Shown: positions 1 to 7,542, counted from the first letter of the stretch. The stretch: DNA of 7,542 bases from Leidyana gryllorum EB-2025a (GCA_048772705.1 JBLWGC010000130.1:1-7542); one strand, 5' to 3'. Numbers and translations: made by a program. The notes: generated from the letters alone by a model not told the origin.

Positions 1-29
1 GAAGAATCATACCACTAGACCAAACAGCC
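1..29 (-). tRNA. trnP: tRNA-Pro, 5' part only (cut by window start)
   Basis: Reverse complement GGCTGTTTGGTCTAGTGGTATGATTCTTC matches the 5' end of tRNA-Pro at 5837-5908 with one mismatch; the anticodon lies outside the window. Confidence 0.8.
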
Positions 30-93
30 GCCTGTCGGTCGTGCAAACCGCTGAGGACACTTGAGATAGTGACACCAAACGTCACAACGTCTC

Positions 94-166
94 TGCCTCG
101 GCCGTGGATCGAACACGGGACTTCCAGATCTTCAGTCTGGCGCTCTCCCAACTGAGCTACCGAGGC
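94..166 (-). tRNA. trnF-GAA: tRNA-Phe(GAA)
   Basis: 73-nt cloverleaf GCCTCGG...CCGAGGC-A; anticodon arm CCAGA-CT-GAA-GA-TCTGG; T-loop TTCGATC. Confidence 0.96.
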
Positions 167-254
167 GGTAGGTAGTCACGGAAGGCGATGAAAATAAGCA
201 CTCACCGCGGCGGTATGTGGGGCCACTCCTCGCCGCATGGCGAAATCGACAGTA

Positions 255-382
255 GCCAACTTGCCCGAGTGGGGAAGGGGGGTAGATTGGAATTCATGCG
301 TAAGTTGGTGTCTGACCCCTCCAATCACATCGCACGACAACTGCTGGATCTGCACCAGCGCGGCCCAGGCCCAGTTGAATTC
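255..382. pseudogene. tRNA-Ser pseudogene split by an internal inversion (5' half on +, 3' half on -)
   Basis: About 255-295 matches the 5' half of tRNA-Ser 6771-6852. The reverse complement of 290-382 supplies the variable arm, T arm, acceptor 3' strand and downstream flank. Confidence 0.85.
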
Positions 383-624
383 TGTGGTGGAAATGATGGC
401 TTTGGTACCCACCAGCCTCACTTGAAGATTGTCCGGGTCGTCTAGGTGCTTACAACAGCAAGTTGTGGCCGTGCATACCCAGGCCCGAATCCTGGTTTGG
501 ATAGTATGTCCCCGATGTCTCGAACGGGAGATGTAGGTGAAGTCTGTCCAAATTCACGATCGGGCGTAGCTGCCCATGTCCTTTCTTGATCGCTACACAC
601 TTCCATTTGACGGCTCCGTTAGTC

Positions 625-697
625 GGCGCTATGGCCTAATGGATATGGCATCGGTCTACGGAACCGGGGATTCTGGGTTCGAGTCCCAGTAGCGTCT
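625..697 (+). tRNA. trnR-ACG: tRNA-Arg(ACG)
   Basis: GGCGCTA...TAGCGTC-T; anticodon arm TCGGT-CT-ACG-GA-ACCGG; T-loop TTCGAGT. Confidence 0.95.
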
Positions 698-735
698 GGG
701 CGAATGGTGCCGTGTAGCGTCAACAACTATCAGAC

Positions 736-764
736 GGGCTGGGAATCGAACCCGCTAGACCAAA
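736..764 (-). pseudogene. Internally deleted tRNA-Pro remnant
   Basis: Only GGGCT, GGGAATCGAACCC and CTAGACCAAA blocks remain, at the position homologous to tRNA-Pro 5837-5908. Confidence 0.75.
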
Positions 765-843
765 TGGTTCAACCCGCTGGGTACAGTCGAGAGACTCGTA
801 TCACTATGTGAAGTATCACTCAATGCCATGAGGTAGGCATAGA

Positions 844-915
844 GGGAGGCTAGCCCAGATGATGAAAAGGTGGCTTAGTATACGAAGGGTTCTGGATCGA
901 TTCCCAGCCCATCCG
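844..915 (+). pseudogene. Degenerate tRNA-Ala pseudogene
   Basis: GGGAGGCTAGCCCAGATGATG...GGATCGATTCCCAGCCCATCC aligns along tRNA-Ala 4849-4921; D and anticodon stems are broken. Confidence 0.65.
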
Positions 916-1005
916 AACTATATAGATGGAATTCTCGTCGGAGTAGTCTAGTTGGCCTATCAACGCTCATCAAGTTGAGTAGTAGTTTGCCGATGACCCT
1001 CTACT

Positions 1006-1085
1006 TCCGGTGGGACGGAATCGAACCGCCGACTATCTGATGCCCGCACTACAGTCAGATGCTCTACCAACTGAGCTACCCCCGG
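1006..1085 (-). tRNA. trnY-GTA: tRNA-Tyr(GTA) with 7-nt intron at 1042-1048
   Basis: CCGGGGG-TA-GCTCAGTTGGTAGAGC-A-TCTGA-CT-GTA-G-[TGCGGGC]-A-TCAGA...TTCGATT...CCACCGG-A. C1-G72 is the eukaryotic Tyr type; one G-A mismatch in the acceptor stem. Confidence 0.9.
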
Positions 1086-1130
1086 CCGTCCAACTGCTCC
1101 GGGGTTCGAAAGGCTTAACCCCAGATCCTC

Positions 1131-1185
1131 ACCCTGTCGGACTGCGGCCTGAACACAGCGCCTTGGACCACTCGGCCATCTTGCC
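1131..1185 (-). pseudogene. tRNA-Leu(CAG) pseudogene, T arm and 3' end disrupted
   Basis: Matches the 5' 55 nt of tRNA-Leu 4711-4790; the T arm and acceptor 3' strand are replaced. Confidence 0.85.
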
Positions 1186-1278
1186 GCAGTGTTGGTTCGT
1201 CGCTCCACGCAGTTTTTGTCCGTGGAATCTCGAAACTGGTAAGACGTCTGAGGCTGAAGGCCGGCGTGTTTGCGAGCG

Positions 1279-1350
1279 TCCGAGATAGTATAGTGGTTAG
1301 TATTTCCGCCTGTCACGCGGAAGACCCGGGTTCGATTTCCGGTCTCGGAG
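1279..1350 (+). tRNA. trnD-GTC: tRNA-Asp(GTC)
   Basis: TCCGAGA...TCTCGGA-G; anticodon arm TCCGC-CT-GTC-AC-GCGGA; T-loop TTCGATT. Confidence 0.95.
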
Positions 1351-1405
1351 CACAGTTGATTTCGGTTAAGATTCTCCCCTTTGGTTCCCGCTGAAAGTTG
1401 CGAGC

Positions 1406-1477
1406 TACAGCCACCGAGGATCGAACTCGGGACTTCTGCGTGCGAAGCAGACGTCGTAACCACTGGACCATTGCTGC
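1406..1477 (-). tRNA. tRNA-Val-derived gene with CGC (Ala-reading) anticodon; probable pseudogene
   Basis: Body matches the Val(CAC) copies, but the anticodon arm is TCTGC-TT-CGC-AC-GCAGA. A-G acceptor mismatch, 1-nt variable-loop deletion, no G3:U70 pair. Confidence 0.8.
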
Positions 1478-1539
1478 ACGGATGGTCCCCGCAGCCCAAG
1501 ACATGGCGAAGTTCCAGGGAGTAGTGAGGACCAGTTCCA

Positions 1540-1611
1540 AGGTCGCGCCGCGAATCGAACCCAGGTCGGGAGATTCAGAGTCTCCAGTGCTAACCACTAC
1601 ACGACGCAACC
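1540..1611 (-). tRNA. trnQ-CTG: tRNA-Gln(CTG), variant with T-stem mismatch
   Basis: Anticodon arm GGAGA-CT-CTG-AA-TCTCC; two substitutions relative to 3413-3484 (position 9 and a G-G in the T stem). Confidence 0.85.
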
Positions 1612-1776
1612 GGCTCAGCCCATCCCAGAAGAGTCTGTTGAATTATCCGTACTAGCGCTTCCTCAACTGGACACACGCAACACGGGTCTCTCTACTGACC
1701 TCTGAAATATTTTAAGTGGCTCCTGTATATAGCGCCCAGCGTAGGCGTTGGATTGAAGCAGTTGCGCAAATGCAAC

Positions 1777-1858
1777 CGACAAGGGTGAGATTCGAACTCA
1801 CGCGGGTGAAACCCAACGGCTTAGCAGGCCGCCGCCTTAACCACTCGGCCACCTTGCC
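1777..1858 (-). tRNA. trnS-GCT: tRNA-Ser(GCT)
   Basis: 82 nt; anticodon arm GCGGC-CT-GCT-AA-GCCGT; long variable arm GGGTTTCACCC; G73. Confidence 0.96.
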
Positions 1859-2062
1859 GAGAGTGGAACGGGCTACACATTCCATCGGGAATCCCGTGCG
1901 AAATTGGTAGTGCCCCTTCTCGATGTCAGTATTTGCCTTTGGAATGACTGCTTGGCGGGGTGGACGAAGGTGAGAGTGGCCGGCTCAGTACCAATCATAA
2001 GGCTTTGCTGAACACATCAGTCGGCTCCTTCGACTAGTGACTGTTCACCTCAACTCTGAAGC

Positions 2063-2135
2063 GGTTGCGTATTTCAGGCGGCCAGAGCGTGAGCCTAATA
2101 AGTTCTGAGTCCGCGGTTGGAGCCCGGCGTGACCA
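2063..2135 (+). pseudogene. tRNA-Ile(AAT) pseudogene
   Basis: 73 nt; acceptor GGTTGCG/CGTGACC-A still pairs; loop CT-AAT-AA; T-loop decayed to TTGGAGC and D stem broken. Confidence 0.7.
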
Positions 2136-2235
2136 AGTGAGTGCATCTCTGATACAGCTTCGCCCTGTACCCGAGGAAGGCCCAAGATTCAACGATCAAT
2201 ACGAATGGAATTTGTTACCAAGTCCGCACTTCCTT

Positions 2236-2301
2236 GCCGCGCCAGCTCCGTCGGTAAAGTGCAAGACTTTCAATGGAGAGACCGCGGGTTGGGGCAGCGC
2301 G
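2236..2301 (+). pseudogene. Degenerate tRNA-Lys(TTT)-derived pseudogene
   Basis: GCCGCGCCAGCTCCGTCGGTAAAGTGCAAGACTTTCAAT...CGCGGGTTGGGGC aligns with tRNA-Lys 6348-6420. Confidence 0.7.
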
Positions 2302-2375
2302 ACCAGACCAGTCCGAGTCAAGCTTGCTGAACCGTATGTGAAGCCACTGGCCGCTAAATGCCGAGTTCGACAGGT

Positions 2376-2457
2376 GGCAACTTGCCCGAGTGTTTAAGGG
2401 GGTAGACTAGAAATCTACTGGGCCTGACCCGGGCTGGTTCAAATCCAGCAGTTGTCG
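2376..2457 (+). tRNA. trnS-AGA: tRNA-Ser(AGA), variant with D-loop GG>GT
   Basis: Anticodon arm GTAGA-CT-AGA-AA-TCTAC; long variable arm; D-loop AGTGTTTAA lacks the conserved GG. Confidence 0.85.
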
Positions 2458-2521
2458 TGCGATGTGATCGAGGGGTCAAACACCAACTCACGCATAAAAC
2501 TCAATCATGTGCTATCTCCTC

Positions 2522-2592
2522 TGCATCTGCCGGGAATCGAACCCGGGTCGTCTCGATGGCAACGAGACATTCTACCACTAGACCACAGATGC
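2522..2592 (-). tRNA. trnG-GCC: tRNA-Gly(GCC)
   Basis: GCATCTG...CAGATGC-A; anticodon arm TCTCG-TT-GCC-AT-CGAGA; T-loop TTCGATT. Confidence 0.96.
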
Positions 2593-2688
2593 ATGACTCG
2601 TTGTTGTTCAAGCTCGTGCACAATAACGGCCGTTTTGCTTCAAACGAGAAGACAGAATCTAGCTGAGCGAGTATGACGGGTGTTTTGT

Positions 2689-2760
2689 GGGTACGTAGCT
2701 CAGTGGTAGAGCAGCTGACTGCAGATCAGCAAGTCCGTGGTTCAACCCCGGGCGTGCCCT
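2689..2760 (+). tRNA. trnC-GCA: tRNA-Cys(GCA), one T-stem mismatch
   Basis: Anticodon arm GCTGA-CT-GCA-GA-TCAGC; T73; T stem CGTGG/CCGGG. Confidence 0.88.
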
Positions 2761-2905
2761 AAAGATGACCTGAAGGTTGAAGATGTTGGAATCCCTGACC
2801 ACATGCCAATGAGTCTGAAGTCGGTGGACAATTTTGGGTGTGTGGCGGATGGTGGCGCGCAGAAATCGCCCGAGTGTCTTGGGGTGCTGCAACTCTTTCG
2901 CAGTT

Positions 2906-2976
2906 GCACTTGTGGTCTAAGGGTAAGATGCGACCCTTCCAAGGTCGTAACCCGGGTTCGAGTCCCGGCAGGTGCA
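2906..2976 (+). tRNA. trnG-TCC: tRNA-Gly(TCC)
   Basis: GCACTTG...CAGGTGC-A; anticodon arm CGACC-CT-TCC-AA-GGTCG; T-loop TTCGAGT. Confidence 0.96.
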
Positions 2977-3036
2977 GGCGTATGTAGCTCGAACCACCTG
3001 AAGAGAGGGGACTACCTACCAATACAATACAACGGC

Positions 3037-3116
3037 TGACAAGAGTGGGATTCGAACCCACGCCCTTTCGGACTGCGGCCTGAACACAGCGCCTTAGACC
3101 ACTCGGCCATCTTGCC
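3037..3116 (-). tRNA. trnL-CAG: tRNA-Leu(CAG)
   Basis: 80 nt; anticodon arm CTGTG-TT-CAG-GC-CGCAG; variable arm TCCGAAAGGG; T-loop TTCGAAT. Confidence 0.96.
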
Positions 3117-3192
3117 GCAGCGTTCTTGGCTCGTCACTTTACACGTTTTCTGGCCGTGAAGTTCTCGAGAAGGAAGACTTCTAGGGTTGAAG

Positions 3193-3228
3193 ACGCGGAA
3201 GACGCGGGTTCGATGCCCTGTCTCGAAG
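3193..3228 (+). pseudogene. tRNA-Asp 3'-half remnant
   Basis: ACGCGGAAGACGCGGGTTCGATGCCCTGTCTCGAAG matches the 3' half of 1279-1350 at the syntenic position. Confidence 0.8.
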
Positions 3229-3276
3229 ACAGCACGTTTCCTCGCTTTGGGTGGAGCTCACTTCACATGTTCGAGC

Positions 3277-3349
3277 TACAGCCACCGAGGATAGAACTCG
3301 GGACCTTCTGCGTGTGAAGCAGACGTCGTAACCACTAGACCATGGCTGC
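3277..3349 (-). tRNA. trnV-CAC: tRNA-Val(CAC), T-loop variant TTCTATC
   Basis: Anticodon arm TCTGC-TT-CAC-AC-GCAGA; stems intact; G57>T. Confidence 0.85.
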
Positions 3350-3412
3350 AGCCAAGGTCCCGCAGACCAAGAGAAGTGGCGAGGTTTTACGAAGTAGTGA
3401 GGACTAGTTTTG

Positions 3413-3484
3413 AGGTCGCGCCGGGAATCGAACCCAGGTCGGGAGATTCAGAGTCTCCAGTGCTAACCACTACACCACGCAACC
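3413..3484 (-). tRNA. trnQ-CTG: tRNA-Gln(CTG)
   Basis: GGTTGCG...CGCGACC-T; anticodon arm GGAGA-CT-CTG-AA-TCTCC; T-loop TTCGATT. Confidence 0.95.
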
Positions 3485-3604
3485 CATTCAGTCCTTCCCA
3501 AAAAGGAGTTGGTAGAGCCATCGGACTTAGCGCTCCTTCAAGTAGGTCATCAGGTTACGTGTTTCCAGAGACACACGCCTTTTTTCCCAGTCCGCAAGCT
3601 CCGT

Positions 3605-3677
3605 GCAGTCATGGTCTAGTGGTCACGACGTCTGCTTCACACGCAGTAGTTCCCGAGTTTGATCCTCGGTGGCTGTA
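3605..3677 (+). tRNA. trnV-CAC: tRNA-Val(CAC), probable pseudogene
   Basis: CAC anticodon; T-loop TTTGATC (C56>T); T-T mismatch at the top of the anticodon stem. Confidence 0.75.
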
Positions 3678-3732
3678 GCTCGCAACTTTCAGCGAGAACC
3701 AAAGGAAACAATCCTAAGCGCAACCAAGTGTG

Positions 3733-3802
3733 CTCCGAGACCGGCAATCGACCCTGGTCTTCCGCGTGATAGGCGGAAATACTAACCGCTATACGATCTC
3801 GA
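3733..3802 (-). pseudogene. tRNA-Asp pseudogene with ATC anticodon
   Basis: Anticodon arm TCCGC-CT-ATC-AC-GCGGA; damaged T arm (GGGTCGATTG); 5' end clipped by the tandem junction. Confidence 0.82.
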
Positions 3803-3839
3803 GAACCAAAGGAAACAATCCTAAGCGAAATCAACTGTG

Positions 3840-3890
3840 CTCCGAGACCGGGAAACGAACCCTGGTCTTCCGCGTGACAGGCGGAAATAC
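3840..3890 (-). pseudogene. tRNA-Asp(GTC), 5'-deleted pseudogene
   Basis: Anticodon and T arms are present; the 5' acceptor strand and most of the D arm are deleted, joining directly to upstream flank ACGCCGGCCT. Confidence 0.82.
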
Positions 3891-3971
3891 ACGCCGGCCT
3901 CCAATCCCAGCAGTCTTTCTATTTTGACTCACGAACAGAAAACGTGTAAAGCGGCGAGCCAAGAGCACTCC

Positions 3972-4051
3972 GGCAAGATGGCCGAGTGGTGTAAGGCGCT
4001 GTGTTAAGGCCGCAGTCCGAGAGGACGTGGGTTCGAATCCCACTCTTGTCA
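3972..4051 (+). tRNA. trnL-AAG: tRNA-Leu(AAG)
   Basis: Anticodon arm CTGTG-TT-AAG-GC-CGCAG; variable arm TCCGAGAGGA; T-loop TTCGAAT. Confidence 0.94.
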
Positions 4052-4118
4052 ACCGTTGTATTTTATTGAGTCGTCCCCTCTCTTCACCTATAGACAGGTC
4101 GTTCGAGCTACATACGGC

Positions 4119-4189
4119 TGCACCTGCCGGGACTCGAACCCGGGTTACGACCTTGGAAGGGTCGCATCTTACCCTTAGACCACAAGTGC
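4119..4189 (-). tRNA. trnG-TCC: tRNA-Gly(TCC)
   Basis: Reverse complement of 2906-2976. Confidence 0.96.
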
Positions 4190-4418
4190 AATTGTGAAAG
4201 ATCTGCAGCACCCCGAGAGACTCGGGCAATTTCTACTTCCAGCTGTCAGCAACCTACGGGGATCGAATCGAGCACTTTCACGGACAAAGGAAACTGATAC
4301 CACTAGCACTTCAACTCGACATGCGGGGCAGCCATCCGGACTAGCGCTCCCTCAACTAGATCATCAGGATACGTGTTTCCAGAGACACACGCCTTTTTTC
4401 CCAGTCCGCAGGCTCCGT

Positions 4419-4491
4419 GCAGCCATGGTCTAGTGGTCGCGACGTCTGCTTCACACGCAGAAGGTCCCGAGTCCGATCCTCGGTGGCTGTA
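4419..4491 (+). tRNA. trnV-CAC: tRNA-Val(CAC), T-loop variant TCCGATC
   Basis: CAC anticodon; stems intact; T55>C. Confidence 0.8.
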
Positions 4492-4546
4492 GCTCGCAAC
4501 TTTCAGCGATATCCGAAAGAAACAATCCTAAGCGCAACCAACTGTG

Positions 4547-4616
4547 CTCCGAGACCGGGAATCGATCTTGGTTTTCCGCGTGATAGGCGGAATACTAACC
4601 GCTATACTATCTCGGA
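4547..4616 (-). pseudogene. tRNA-Asp pseudogene with ATC anticodon
   Basis: 70 nt; acceptor intact; loop CT-ATC-AC; T arm broken (CCAAGATCGATTCCCGG). Confidence 0.82.
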
Positions 4617-4710
4617 CGCTCTGGATACGCTGGCCCCCAACCCCAGAAGTTCTTCCATTTTGAGATTCCACGGATAGAAAACGCGTGGAGCGGCGAGCCA
4701 ACAACATTTC

Positions 4711-4790
4711 GGCAAGATGGCCGAGTGGTCCAAGGCGCTGTGTTCAGGCCGCAGTCCGAAAGGGCGTGGGTTCGAATCCCACTCTTGTCA
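4711..4790 (+). tRNA. trnL-CAG: tRNA-Leu(CAG)
   Basis: 80-nt intact cloverleaf; one D-loop difference from 3037-3116. Confidence 0.96.
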
Positions 4791-4848
4791 GCCGTTGTAT
4801 CGGCTCGGTCAGCCACTGGATGCAATAGGTCTTCCATGTAGAGCGGAT

Positions 4849-4921
4849 GGGCGGCTAGCTCAGATGGTAGAGCGCTCGCTTTGCATGCGAGAGGTACTGG
4901 GATCGATACCCAGGTCGTCCA
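4849..4921 (+). tRNA. trnA-TGC: tRNA-Ala(TGC)
   Basis: G3:U70 pair; anticodon arm CTCGC-TT-TGC-AT-GCGAG; eukaryotic Ala T-loop ATCGATA. Confidence 0.96.
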
Positions 4922-5110
4922 AACTTTGTAGTGCTGCAACTGGCGCTATTTGACTACAGAGTTGAGAGCTTTAAGGGTGCCCTGTAGCCGTTGAATAGAC
5001 TTGGGCACCGCACTTCAACTCGACATGCGCAGCAGTGGCCCCCATACAGCTAGCAAGCTTGCCTCGGTCGAAACGGAACGTCTTCCGCGTGCGAGGCTAT
5101 AATGCGGATG

Positions 5111-5134
5111 GCCATATCCATTAGCCACCGCACC
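5111..5134 (-). pseudogene. tRNA-Arg-like 5' fragment
   Basis: Reverse complement GGTGCGGTGGCTAATGGATATGGC resembles the acceptor and D arm of Arg 625-697. Confidence 0.45.
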
Positions 5135-5165
5135 ATAGACAAGCTTTGGTCATCTCGGGAGCTTG

Positions 5166-5238
5166 TCCACTGTAGTCTAAGTGGCTAGGATATGCCGCTT
5201 TCACCCGCACAATCCGGGTTCAAGTCCCGGCAGTGGAA
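5166..5238 (+). tRNA. trnE-TTC: tRNA-Glu(TTC), one anticodon-stem mismatch
   Basis: TCCACTG...CAGTGGA-A; anticodon arm TGCCG-CT-TTC-AC-CCGCA (C-C mismatch); T-loop TTCAAGT. Confidence 0.88.
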
Positions 5239-5306
5239 GTTACTCGAGCAAAGTGCTCCAGTAATCCCCGTCAATAGTAACTGATTCGTGATCTTCGGCT
5301 TGTATT

Positions 5307-5378
5307 GCCTTCTTAGCTTAGGGGCAGAGCATTCGCTTAGTAAGCGAAAGGTCGCCGGTTCGATTCCGGCAGAAGGCT
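5307..5378 (+). tRNA. trnT-AGT: tRNA-Thr(AGT)
   Basis: GCCTTCT...AGAAGGC-T; anticodon arm TTCGC-TT-AGT-AA-GCGAA; T-loop TTCGATT. Confidence 0.93.
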
Positions 5379-5500
5379 TGCTCACGAGCTTAAGCTTTTC
5401 TGGCTGGTCTCTCAGATCTCGATAACGACCTGAGAGGGCTGCAAAATTCTTCGGTAGAAGATGAAGGATCTCCCTACTAACCTCTGAAAGATTGTCACTG

Positions 5501-5573
5501 GGTCTTATAACTCAGTCGGCAGAGCGTGTGGCTGTTAACCACAAAGTCGCAGGTTCGCAACCTGCCAGGACCG
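5501..5573 (+). tRNA. trnN-GTT: tRNA-Asn(GTT), possibly inactive
   Basis: Anticodon arm TGTGG-CT-GTT-AA-CCACA; G10>A, T-loop TTCGCAA (A58>C) and an A-C acceptor mismatch. Confidence 0.8.
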
Positions 5574-5601
5574 GGTGCTGCGGCACCGTACTCTCTAGAC
5601 G

Positions 5602-5635
5602 GCACTTGTGCTCTTGGACCCTTCCAAGGTCGTAA
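5602..5635 (+). pseudogene. tRNA-Gly(TCC) fragment
   Basis: GCACTTGTG...GACCCTTCCAAGGTCGTAA matches the 5' end and anticodon arm of 2906-2976; D arm deleted, T arm absent. Confidence 0.75.
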
Positions 5636-5674
5636 ATATGTATTTAAATACCGGCAGTTGCAGACTACGAAGTT

Positions 5675-5747
5675 TGGACGACCTGTGCATCGATCCCAGT
5701 ACCTCTCGCATGCTAAGCGAGCGCTCTACCATTTGAGCCAGTAGCCC
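5675..5747 (-). tRNA. trnA-AGC: tRNA-Ala(AGC), variant with stem mismatches
   Basis: Anticodon arm CTCGC-TT-AGC-AT-GCGAG; G3:U70; one mismatch each in the acceptor and T stems. Confidence 0.85.
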
Positions 5748-5836
5748 ATTGTGCAGACCCCATCGCATTTTTTTGTTCTCAACATCGTATGACCACTCTC
5801 TCGACTGTACCCAGCGGGTTGAACCACCGGCTAGGC

Positions 5837-5908
5837 GGCTGTTTGGTCTAGTGGTATGATCCTTCCTTAGGGTGGAAGGAGTCCTGGGTTCGATTCCCAG
5901 AACAGCCC
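5837..5908 (+). tRNA. trnP-AGG: tRNA-Pro(AGG)
   Basis: GGCTGTT...AACAGCC-C; anticodon arm CTTCC-TT-AGG-GT-GGAAG; T-loop TTCGATT. Confidence 0.94.
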
Positions 5909-6004
5909 GTCTGATAGTTGTTGACGCAACACGGCACTCGACCCATACAGCTAAGACAGGATCTGAGTTGTTGACTCAATAGGCTGCAACTCGGCCATTC
6001 GTCC

Positions 6005-6077
6005 AGACGCTACTGGGACTCGAACCCAGAACCCCCGGTTCCGTAGACCGATGCCATATCCATTAGGCCATAGCGCC
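6005..6077 (-). tRNA. trnR-ACG: tRNA-Arg(ACG)
   Basis: Reverse complement of 625-697 with one variable-loop difference. Confidence 0.95.
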
Positions 6078-6347
6078 GACTAGCGGAGCCGTCAAATGGG
6101 AGTGTGTAGCGATCAAGACAGGACATGGGCAGCTACGCCCGATGGTGGGTGTGGGCAGACTTCACCCACATCTCCCATTCGAGACATCGGGGACATACTA
6201 TCCAAGCCAGGATTCGGGCCTGGGTATGCACGGCCACAACTTGCTGTTGTAAGCACCTAGACGACCCGCACAATCTTCAAGTGAGGCTGGTGGGTACCAA
6301 AGCCACTTAAGATGTCGGGCTATCGGGTTTTTTGTCCTTGCATTCCT

Positions 6348-6420
6348 GCCGCCCTAGCTCAGTCGGTAGAGCGCAAGACTTTTAATCTTGCAGTCGCGGG
6401 TTCGAGCCCCGCGGGCGGTG
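6348..6420 (+). tRNA. trnK-TTT: tRNA-Lys(TTT)
   Basis: GCCGCCC...GGGCGGT-G; anticodon arm CAAGA-CT-TTT-AA-TCTTG; T-loop TTCGAGC. Confidence 0.96.
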
Positions 6421-6480
6421 CAAATCAATGTCTCTGGGAGTAGGAATGGAACCGTTGCCTACAAGCACACTCTGCTGGAT

Positions 6481-6553
6481 TTCCACTGCCGGGACTTGAA
6501 CCCGGATCGTGCGGGTGAGAGCCGCATATCCGAGCCATTTAGACTACAGTGGA
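6481..6553 (-). tRNA. trnE-CTC: tRNA-Glu(CTC)
   Basis: TCCACTG...CAGTGGA-A; anticodon arm TGCGG-CT-CTC-AC-CCGCA; T-loop TTCAAGT. Confidence 0.93.
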
Positions 6554-6639
6554 CGAGACACAACAGTTGCACTGACGAATGAGGCGCCAGATAACTGTGA
6601 GTCGGTCTCAGATGGAAAGTTCACCTAGGTTTGGCGGGC

Positions 6640-6686
6640 GGGCGGCTATCTCAAGTGGTAGAGCGGTGACTTTGCACGCGAGAGGT
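6640..6686 (+). pseudogene. tRNA-Ala(TGC) 3'-truncated pseudogene
   Basis: GGGCGGCTATCTCAAGTGGTAGAGCGGTGACTTTGCACGCGAGAGGT aligns with the 5' two-thirds of 4849-4921; no T arm. Confidence 0.78.
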
Positions 6687-6770
6687 CAGTTAGACATCTG
6701 TCAATGCCGCAGGGCAGGCTGAACATGGGGGCATTTGGTCACTCCTCGCGGCATGTCGAATTCGACAGTT

Positions 6771-6852
6771 GGCAACTTGCCCGAGTGGTTAAGGGGGTAG
6801 ACTTGAAATCTACTGGGCCTGGCCCGCGCTGGTTCAAATCCAGCAGTTGTCG
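6771..6852 (+). tRNA. trnS-TGA: tRNA-Ser(TGA)
   Basis: 82 nt; anticodon arm GTAGA-CT-TGA-AA-TCTAC; variable arm GGGCCTGGCCC; G73. Confidence 0.96.
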
Positions 6853-6934
6853 TGCGATCTGATTGGAGGGGCAGACAACAACTCACTCCTGAAACCCCAG
6901 AATTGTGCCTCAATCAACCATCTGCCATCTTCTC

Positions 6935-7005
6935 TGCATCTGCCGGGAATCGAACCTGGGTCGTCTCGGTGGCAACGAAACATTCTACCACTAGACCACA
7001 GATGC
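6935..7005 (-). tRNA. trnG-GCC: tRNA-Gly(GCC), one T-stem mismatch
   Basis: Anticodon arm TTTCG-TT-GCC-AC-CGAGA; three differences from 2522-2592. Confidence 0.9.
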
Positions 7006-7100
7006 ATGACTCGTTGTTGTTCAAGCTCGTGCACAATAACGGCCGTTTTGCTTCAAATGAGAAGACAGAATCGAGTTGAGCGAGTATGACGGGCAGTTCT

Positions 7101-7172
7101 GGGTACGTAGCTCAGTGGTAGAGCAGCTGACTGCAGATCAGCAAGTCCGTGGTTCAACTCCGCGCGTGCCCT
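7101..7172 (+). tRNA. trnC-GCA: tRNA-Cys(GCA)
   Basis: GGGTACG...CGTGCCC-T; anticodon arm GCTGA-CT-GCA-GA-TCAGC; T stem fully paired. Confidence 0.95.
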
Positions 7173-7253
7173 GAAGATGGTTTGGAACGATCGGAGATGT
7201 TGGACCTCCATTCCTGACCACAAGGCAATTAGTTTGGAACGGGAGATGGTTTC

Positions 7254-7325
7254 GGGCCTATGGCGCAACGGTAGCGCGTCTGACTCCAGATCAGAAGGTT
7301 GGGTGTTCGAATCACTCTGGGCTCA
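7254..7325 (+). tRNA. trnW-CCA: tRNA-Trp(CCA)
   Basis: GGGCCTA...TGGGCTC-A; anticodon arm TCTGA-CT-CCA-GA-TCAGA; T-loop TTCGAAT. Confidence 0.96.
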
Positions 7326-7505
7326 ATCAGACTTTATGTTCTTCTCGTATGGGGCGCAACCAAGAATGGGATTCGGACGCACGCCCAGTCGGCGCTGCGC
7401 CGTCACATACGTCCCTGCGAGTGCTACAGCTGTCCGCCCGTGTCTAATTGGCACTGGAGTTCAACGGCGTAGAATTCTAGTGAGTCAGCCATGTGCTATG
7501 TCCTC

Positions 7506-7542
7506 TGCATCTGCCGGGAATCGAAAACGGGTCGTCTCGATG
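7506..7542 (-). tRNA. trnG: tRNA-Gly(GCC-type), 3' half (cut by window end, T stem damaged)
   Basis: Matches 2522-2558 and its flank CATGTGCTAT..TCCTC; GAAAACGGG replaces GAACCCGGG. Confidence 0.75.

Follow-up and report, generated by a model that had tools for sequence, protein, structure and literature searches.

The 7542-bp stretch JBLWGC010000130.1:1-7542 from Leidyana gryllorum EB-2025a (GCA_048772705.1), analysed over its full length and called the window throughout, is a dense island of eukaryotic-type tRNA genes. T-runs, commonly taken for the stop signal that RNA polymerase III (Pol III) uses universally, stand behind these genes at chance level only. With somewhat more than even confidence, we read the window as a dense nuclear tRNA island, likely chromosomal and likely from a gregarine, whose segments are copied, inverted and decaying, and whose intact genes lacking a T-run are likely read through, their tRNAs being cut from longer precursors. 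This reading was built from sequence comparison.

Gene content of the array and T-runs behind its genes

ARAGORN called 34 tRNA genes in the window, two of them broken Asp copies, and Rfam gave 32 matches above the gathering score. Using 21 representative window tRNAs as BLAST queries against the window, 52 loci were obtained, and the 2 weakest (E ~0.03) were dropped; shuffled windows gave 0-4 matches each. The remaining 50 tRNA-derived units comprise 32 full-length genes and 18 remnants, 2 of which are clipped by the window edges and could be whole genes. They lie on both strands at one unit per 151 bp (6.6 units per kb), separated by spacers with a median of 64 nt and gaps of at most 244 nt, and the strand switches at 30 of the 49 junctions between units. 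Both window edges fall inside tRNAs (Pro, 1-29; Gly-GCC, 7506-7542), so the array is open at both ends. As CCA follows the discriminator in none of the 32 full-length genes, anticodons with A at position 34 (A34) are frequent and the tRNA-Tyr gene holds an intron of 7 nt, the genes are of eukaryotic nuclear type. A total of 17 amino acids is covered, 18 counting pseudo-Ile and 19 counting pseudo-His as well; Met is not among the window genes, and His and Ile are present as pseudogenes only. A preliminary description of the same DNA had reported about 34 full-length genes and more than 10 remnants on both strands, one per roughly 160 bp, with 18 amino acids including pseudo-Ile, tRNAs at both edges and genes of eukaryotic type, and our counts agree with it in all these respects.

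Intactness was judged by paired acceptor and T stems and by the A and B boxes, with the D and anticodon stems outside the test. It was passed by 19 of the 32 full-length genes. Ala-TGC, with paired stems and A54 in its T-loop, was added as intact, A54 being normal for eukaryotic tRNA-Ala, which gives 20 intact-looking genes; the remaining 12 bear lesions. The window contains 24 anticodon types, and the intact-looking genes account for 17 of these and for 13 amino acids. Compared with the 46 anticodon types of trypanosomatids (PMC2695483), the window therefore holds about half a decoding set, and the near-complete set claimed in the preliminary description was an overstatement.

A run of four T residues (T4) was found within 15 nt behind 1, within 25 nt behind 2 and within 50 nt behind 3 of the 32 full-length genes; for the intact-looking genes the count within 25 nt was 2 of 20. 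In a related 1203-bp metagenome contig (L001) the corresponding counts were 0, 1 and 2 of 6 genes. As the spacer background amounts to 5.5% per 20 nt and 8.9% per 30 nt, against 2 of 32 window genes within 25 nt, T4 behind the genes of both sequences is at chance level. This is the oddest feature of the array, and the preliminary description does not mention it. No excess of T over A was observed in the 30 nt downstream (212 T versus 196 A, p 0.46; 27 flanks, 21 from the window and 6 from L001), and a degenerate T-rich signal, by a definition made for this analysis, occurred in 2 of the 27 flanks. The first T4 on the same strand often lies hundreds of bases away, up to 1488 nt, past at least one same-strand gene. 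Internal A and B boxes without an encoded CCA, as in canonical type 2 Pol III genes, were thus found in 19 of 32 genes (20 with Ala-TGC), and the T4 run in 2 of 32. Upstream, 30 nt of the coding strand are poor in A (234 T, 147 A), and 11 of 26 flanks have an A at -4 (p 0.009 by permutation, post hoc), which fits a separate start site per gene. A general depletion of T-runs was considered and rejected, as 23 T4/A4 runs were observed in the spacers and 22 expected; together with T runs of 5-7 elsewhere in the window, the same count ruled out their erasure by sequencing error or assembly.

T-runs are reported for 54-100% of the tRNA genes in the published sets compared (PMC2695483, PMC3141230, PMC13437025). 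In trypanosomatids a T-run lies at 0-7 nt behind all 269 tRNA genes (PMC2695483), in yeast and human one is found within 15 nt of >97% and of 50-60% of the genes, respectively (PMC3141230), and across four plant and algal groups the group values within 25 nt are 53.7-91.6% (PMC13437025 Fig. S6). Using 53.7% as benchmark, the 2 of 20 intact-looking genes with T4 give p 6e-5.

Duplicated modules, decay and anticodon change

Duplicated segments of 130-485 bp, direct or inverted and 70-95% identical including their spacers, contain 4442 of the 7542 bases (59%). Three modules recur, namely Ser-Gly-Cys, Gly-Leu-Asp-Val-Gln and His-Arg-Pro-Ala; the duplications are irregular, and a regular repeat unit was not seen in the window. 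Modules and units are listed with coordinates, strand and, in brackets, the basis of the call ("test" is the intactness test).

2358..2817: module A, Ser(+), Gly-GCC(-), Cys(+); direct copy 6753-7236, 85% identical
2861..3541: module B, Gly-TCC(+), Leu(-), Asp piece(+), Val(-), Gln(-); partial direct copy 1132-1666, inverted copies 3516-4234 and 4330-4800
397..919: module C, pseudo-His(+), Arg(+), Pro piece(-), Ala piece(+); inverted copy 5671-6305 (95% over 397-707, 71% over 765-919)

1..7542, no strand: tRNA gene island open at both ends, 50 tRNA-derived units; protein genes: none found
1..29, -: tRNA-Pro 5' part cut by the window edge, maybe a whole gene (BLAST)
94..166, -: tRNA-Phe(GAA), intact-looking (Rfam, test)
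257..295, +: Ser 5' remnant (BLAST)
335..382, -: Ser 3' remnant, inverted (BLAST)
430..504, +: pseudo-His(GTG) (relaxed score only; BLAST)
625..697, +: tRNA-Arg(ACG), intact-looking (Rfam, test)
735..753, -: deleted Pro remnant; 707-753 matches 5886-5937 (BLAST weak, E 0.01)
844..914, +: Ala remnant, 72% to Ala-TGC (BLAST)
1006..1085, -: tRNA-Tyr(GTA), 7-nt intron, one acceptor-stem mismatch (test)
1127..1185, -: Leu 5' remnant (BLAST)
1279..1350, +: tRNA-Asp(GTC), B-box change (test)
1406..1477, -: Val-derived gene, CGC anticodon (ARAGORN: Ala), acceptor mismatch (BLAST, test)
1540..1611, -: tRNA-Gln(CTG), T-stem mismatch (test)
1777..1858, -: tRNA-Ser(GCT), intact-looking (Rfam, test)
2063..2135, +: pseudo-Ile(AAT) (relaxed score only)
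2236..2301, +: Lys remnant, 74% (BLAST)
2376..2457, +: tRNA-Ser(AGA), D-loop lesion, module A paralog of Ser-TGA (test)
2522..2592, -: tRNA-Gly(GCC), intact-looking, T4 at +22 (test)
2689..2760, +: tRNA-Cys(GCA), T-stem mismatch (test)
2906..2976, +: tRNA-Gly(TCC), intact-looking (Rfam, test)
3037..3116, -: tRNA-Leu(CAG), intact-looking (Rfam, test)
3193..3228, +: Asp 3' remnant (BLAST)
3277..3349, -: tRNA-Val(CAC), B-box lesion (test)
3413..3484, -: tRNA-Gln(CTG), intact-looking (Rfam, test)
3605..3677, +: tRNA-Val(CAC), B-box lesion (test)
3733..3803, -: decayed Asp copy, ATC anticodon (Rfam to E 5)
3840..3890, -: Asp 3' part fused to spacer (BLAST)
3972..4051, +: tRNA-Leu(AAG), intact-looking, in Leu-CAG module, T4 at +9 (test)
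4119..4189, -: tRNA-Gly(TCC), intact-looking, identical to 2906-2976 (test)
4419..4491, +: tRNA-Val(CAC), B-box lesion (test)
4547..4616, -: decayed Asp copy, ATC anticodon (Rfam to E 5)
4711..4790, +: tRNA-Leu(CAG), intact-looking (Rfam, test)
4849..4921, +: tRNA-Ala(TGC), paired stems, A54 T-loop, counted intact (Rfam, test)
5166..5238, +: tRNA-Glu(TTC), passes test (test)
5307..5378, +: tRNA-Thr(AGT), intact-looking, T4 at +17 (test)
5501..5573, +: tRNA-Asn(GTT), acceptor and B-box lesions (test)
5617..5662, +: Gly-TCC 3' remnant (BLAST)
5675..5747, -: tRNA-Ala(AGC), stem mismatches (test)
5837..5908, +: tRNA-Pro(AGG), intact-looking (Rfam, test)
6005..6077, -: tRNA-Arg(ACG), intact-looking (Rfam, test)
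6198..6272, -: pseudo-His(GTG) (relaxed score only)
6348..6420, +: tRNA-Lys(TTT), intact-looking (Rfam, test)
6481..6553, -: tRNA-Glu(CTC), intact-looking (Rfam, test)
6640..6686, +: Ala 5' remnant (BLAST)
6771..6852, +: tRNA-Ser(TGA), intact-looking, 82/82 nt identical to the L001 gene (comparison with L001)
6935..7005, -: tRNA-Gly(GCC), T-stem mismatch (test)
7101..7172, +: tRNA-Cys(GCA), intact-looking (Rfam, test)
7254..7325, +: tRNA-Trp(CCA), intact-looking (Rfam, test)
7361..7392, -: Leu 3' remnant (BLAST)
7506..7542, -: Gly-GCC 3' part cut by the window edge (BLAST)

Comparing 11 overlapping, mutually non-independent duplicate pairs, mismatches were found at 52 of 1043 positions (5.0%) in tRNA bodies versus 229 of 1360 (16.8%) in spacers. 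The lower divergence of the bodies means selection on them or conversion between them, which this comparison does not tell apart. The spacers of the module copies differ by 7-28%. Since the copies have their native, co-duplicated flanks, keep the Tyr intron and lack CCA, they are DNA copies, and the lack of T-runs was therefore inherited along with the genes. Retrocopies or tRNA-derived short interspersed elements were ruled out on the same three grounds; target-site duplications were not searched for. Of the ancestral cassette that the preliminary description saw as repeatedly copied, inverted and eroded, the copying, inversion and erosion of modules were supported; the single origin was not, because the recurrence of at least three separate modules and the different gene order and spacers of L001 argue against one ancestral cassette. 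For other clusters, recombination at tRNA genes has been proposed as the driver (PMC2888827; PMC2652664). An inversion breakpoint lies within a tRNA gene at 257-382, where a plus-strand Ser 5' half precedes a minus-strand Ser 3' half. The two pseudo-His copies (430-504 and 6198-6272) are 97% identical with flanks 95% identical, i.e., a dead gene was copied along with its module.

Anticodon changes within the duplicated modules concern Leu (CAG/AAG), Ser (TGA/AGA), Ala (TGC/AGC), Asp (GTC/ATC) and a Val body with CGC. Among the changed copies, Leu-AAG alone passes the intactness test, and it may be a working isoacceptor that arose by anticodon change. Its other differences from Leu-CAG at 3037-3116 preserve the variable-arm hairpin. 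The A34 changes in the Ser, Ala and Asp copies all occur in damaged genes. The Val body at 1406-1477 (minus strand) has the CGC anticodon of Ala, an intact B box and stem lesions; automatic annotation names it Ala, and if charged it would misread codons. The three Leu-CAG/Leu-AAG genes (3037-3116, 3972-4051, 4711-4790) are only 80 nt long with a short variable arm, and the Leu-CAA gene of L001 has 84 nt and a different body. The 7-nt intron of tRNA-Tyr stands at the low end of the 7-121 nt range and below the 11-13 nt of trypanosomatids (PMC2695483); this copy has an acceptor mismatch, and its intron length may be decayed.

Other genes were searched for as well. No Pfam match was obtained for 12 of the 14 frames of at least 100 codons (34 frames listed, two unscanned). 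Rfam, to E 5, gave no 5S, U6, 7SL or other RNA genes beyond tRNA look-alikes, a search that divergent genes could escape. Hidden structured RNAs were rejected, as folding of 13 spacers on both strands (26 tests) gave best z values of -2.7 and -2.4. The -2.7 belongs to the minus strand of the longest spacer (4922-5165), which contains scraps resembling Asp and Arg genes. Tandem Repeats Finder gave just one 19-nt, 2-copy repeat in the window.

Readings of the array

In the reading we favour, Pol III would start a few bases upstream of each intact gene, directed by the A and B boxes inside it, and, without a T-run, would continue over the spacer into the next tRNA unit. Factors bound on the neighbouring gene, or an oncoming polymerase, would stop it there, and the read-through transcript would be trimmed to the mature tRNA by RNase P and RNase Z. 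Processing by these two enzymes needs no terminator. Clustering would shield protein genes from read-through, and high copy number would make single copies dispensable, which the steady share of damaged copies fits. The island would most likely be a site where the lineage keeps many working tRNA genes, with fast birth and death through local duplication and inversion. A wider proposal is put forward tentatively, as we hold it to be somewhat doubtful: that in a whole lineage, probably the gregarines, working tRNA genes would lie in fast-shuffling islands without T-run termination, where neighbours stop each other's polymerases, tRNAs are cut from read-through transcripts, clustering is required and new isoacceptors are spawned by anticodon change.

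If intact genes indeed work without a T-run, the array would be a natural test of other ways to stop Pol III, and would provide a mechanical reason for tRNA gene clustering, which is listed as unresolved in reviews (PMC13578239). Plasmodium and Cryptosporidium, with minimal sets of 45 genes, would then stand in contrast to it, and the tRNA counts of gregarine assemblies, 14 or 231, may find an explanation here.

We are aware of several points that weigh against this reading. In yeast, T-tracts are reported to be necessary for Pol III termination (PMC9278858). T3 was found within 20 nt behind 11 of 32 genes versus 19.7% expected (p 0.037, uncorrected and from non-independent copies), which leaves room for a relaxed T3 signal. 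Only 21 of the 32 genes have a convergent neighbour downstream, a weak support for stopping by collision. Of the 32 full-length genes 12 are damaged, with no undamaged copy of Val, Asp, Asn or Tyr, and His and Ile are pseudogenes throughout; working copies of these must be located outside the window, possibly with terminators. That bodies are more alike than spacers could also stem from gene conversion by active genes elsewhere. Finally, the relative is a single 1.2-kb contig, and the likely gregarine assignment is backed in this analysis by GC content.

A silent store of spare or decaying copies, perhaps structural (centromere, chromosome end, chromatin boundary), with working, terminator-bearing genes elsewhere and conversion keeping the bodies alike, is unlikely in our view, although it is the main rival. 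The 12 damaged genes and 18 remnants in the window and the 3 damaged genes of 6 in L001 are compatible with it, unexpressed copies would show terminators at background level, and the authors of the Entamoeba work think many array copies inactive and discuss a telomere role (PMC2652664). However, the copies have their own duplicated flanks and never a T-run remnant, and two lineages with unalignable spacers both retain intact genes in such arrays. Moreover, the Asp scan of the metagenome collection gave the array contig only and no lone copy, which is weak evidence, as short or collapsed contigs are easily missed. A silent array would be less surprising, and still an undescribed tRNA graveyard.

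We consider it improbable that a few promoters outside the island, perhaps served by RNA polymerase II, drive transcription of each strand into long precursors with many tRNAs, which are cut out as punctuation, the internal boxes being kept only for tRNA shape. Such transcription would account for the lack of terminators and for the many first same-strand T4 runs that are reached, at distances of up to 1488 nt, past at least one further same-strand gene, and tRNA-Sec made by RNA polymerase II has been reported in Trypanosoma brucei (PMC2943599). The strand switches at 30 of 49 junctions are, however, unlike an operon, full transcription of both strands would yield long double-stranded RNA, and the scarcity of A upstream together with the A at -4 suggests a start per gene.

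The preliminary description had left open whether the array is a dedicated chromosomal tRNA domain or cargo of a large mobile element or endogenous virus. The former is favoured, and the latter appears very improbable. The flanks of the array lie beyond the window, and large tRNA clusters are known in viruses and prokaryotes, but the 12 scanned frames gave no Pfam match and none of four scans of viral contigs matched (Ser, Asp, Gly and Leu patterns; the Leu pattern also gave 0 matches in metagenome and genome contigs). The eukaryotic intron and the A34 anticodons also speak against cargo, as do the like layout and unrelated spacers of L001, and an apicomplexan survey gives no class II transposons in 64 genomes (PMC9141347). 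A misassembly of dispersed tRNA loci at shared tRNA sequence is hardly credible: the many near-identical repeats of 70-85 nt could mislead an assembler and local order rests on the assembly, but spacers differing by 7-28% mark the module copies as distinct loci, dispersed genes would bring long unique flanks where no gap exceeds 244 nt, and L001 independently shows equal density.

Known tRNA gene clusters and related contigs

A tRNA gene island has been defined as at least 5 tRNA genes within 5 kb (PMC13578239). With 32 full-length genes in 7.5 kb the window is an island by this definition, and thus of a known kind. Many isotypes (17 amino acids) and mixed orientation (30 of 49 junctions) are shared with the islands of Chlamydomonas reinhardtii and metazoans, and the window lies far above 5 genes per 5 kb (PMC13578239; PMC13437025). 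Islands are described as lacking obvious repeated motifs (PMC13578239), whereas segmental duplication without a regular unit makes up 59% of the window. In the group "other Archaeplastida" 68.7% of the genes have a T-run within 25 nt, compared to 6% in the window (PMC13437025). Singletons are reviewed as nearly exclusive in the protists sampled (PMC13578239), and clusters of at least 50 tRNA genes are known in Nematostella and fishes (PMC2888827).

The clusters of trypanosomatids resemble the window in belonging to protist parasites, in mixed isotypes, short spacers (mean 202 bp in L. major), an intron in tRNA-Tyr only and a gene order little conserved between species (PMC2695483). They differ in holding 2-10 tRNA genes (at most 13 Pol III genes) bounded by protein genes, compared to at least 50 units and no bounding gene here, in a T-run at 0-7 nt behind each gene (269/269) where the window is at background, and in that they may include 5S, small nuclear RNA and 7SL genes, none of which Rfam found in the window (PMC2695483). 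In Entamoeba, too, tRNA genes are gathered in a protist parasite and recombination at tRNA genes is the proposed driver, but the units are uniform, tandem and of at most 5 genes with no clear pseudogenes, in contrast to the irregular, 70-95% alike and often decayed copies here; the spacers of E. histolytica and E. dispar carry short tandem repeats, the window a single 19-nt, 2-copy repeat (PMC2652664). Human genes without a nearby T4 can be transcribed with long 3' trailers, yet these are about a fifth of the genes and use degenerate T-rich signals, compared to about nine in ten genes without T enrichment here (PMC3141230). Prokaryotic and viral arrays have at least 20 genes at 2 per kb; the window reaches this density, but its genes are of eukaryotic type and 0 of 4 viral scans matched. 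The window is neither an Entamoeba-type array nor a trypanosomatid-type cluster. New is the combination of 6.6 units per kb, irregular shuffling with decay, a probably apicomplexan source and chance-level terminators in two related sequences.

The window likely derives from a gregarine lineage, its GC content of 0.51-0.58 along its length being like the 53.8% of Gregarina niphandrodes and the 54.3% of Porospora (PMC9250747). The Gly and Asp genes may resemble apicomplexan tRNAs, but tRNA motifs sought in papers in order to place the lineage gave 0 matches. Counts of tRNA genes are 231 in Gregarina niphandrodes, 45 in Cryptosporidium and Plasmodium and 14 in each of the Porospora genomes (PMC9250747). 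The 14 of Porospora are too few for a cell and would fit unassembled arrays. No description of tRNA gene arrangement or terminators in gregarines or other apicomplexans, or of a lineage-wide lack of T-runs, was found in the literature covered, most subscription papers lying outside this coverage. The apicomplexan survey contains 23 tRNA-bearing repeat models, unassigned to species in its accessible parts, which may bear on the array (PMC9141347).

Asp patterns recovered L001 from a metagenome and a second contig, L002, from a genome contig collection. L001 (GC 0.557) carries six different tRNAs (Ser, Asp, Asn, Thr, Leu, Met) on strictly alternating strands. Its Ser-TGA equals that of the window over all 82 nt, and Asp, Asn and Thr show 2-5 differences; the flanks are identical at 6-14 of 30 positions, the gene order differs and 3 of the 6 genes are damaged. 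Since L001 independently has dense, mixed tRNAs with unrelated spacers in another order, dense mixed arrays with a share of damaged copies are a trait of the lineage, and their density does not stem from a misassembly of dispersed genes. Its divergent gaps measure ~75-105 nt and its convergent ones ~180 nt, and its Met tRNA is of the initiator type, not present in the window. L002 (1771 bp) has 4 tRNAs on one strand, 73-92% identical to window genes, with T4 at 0, 149 and 518 nt behind the 3 genes whose flanks are present, and was set aside as a more distant eukaryote. It sits in a bacterial genome bin, probably as eukaryotic contamination, and with eukaryote-type tRNAs, local repeats and a microsatellite end represents another clustered arrangement.

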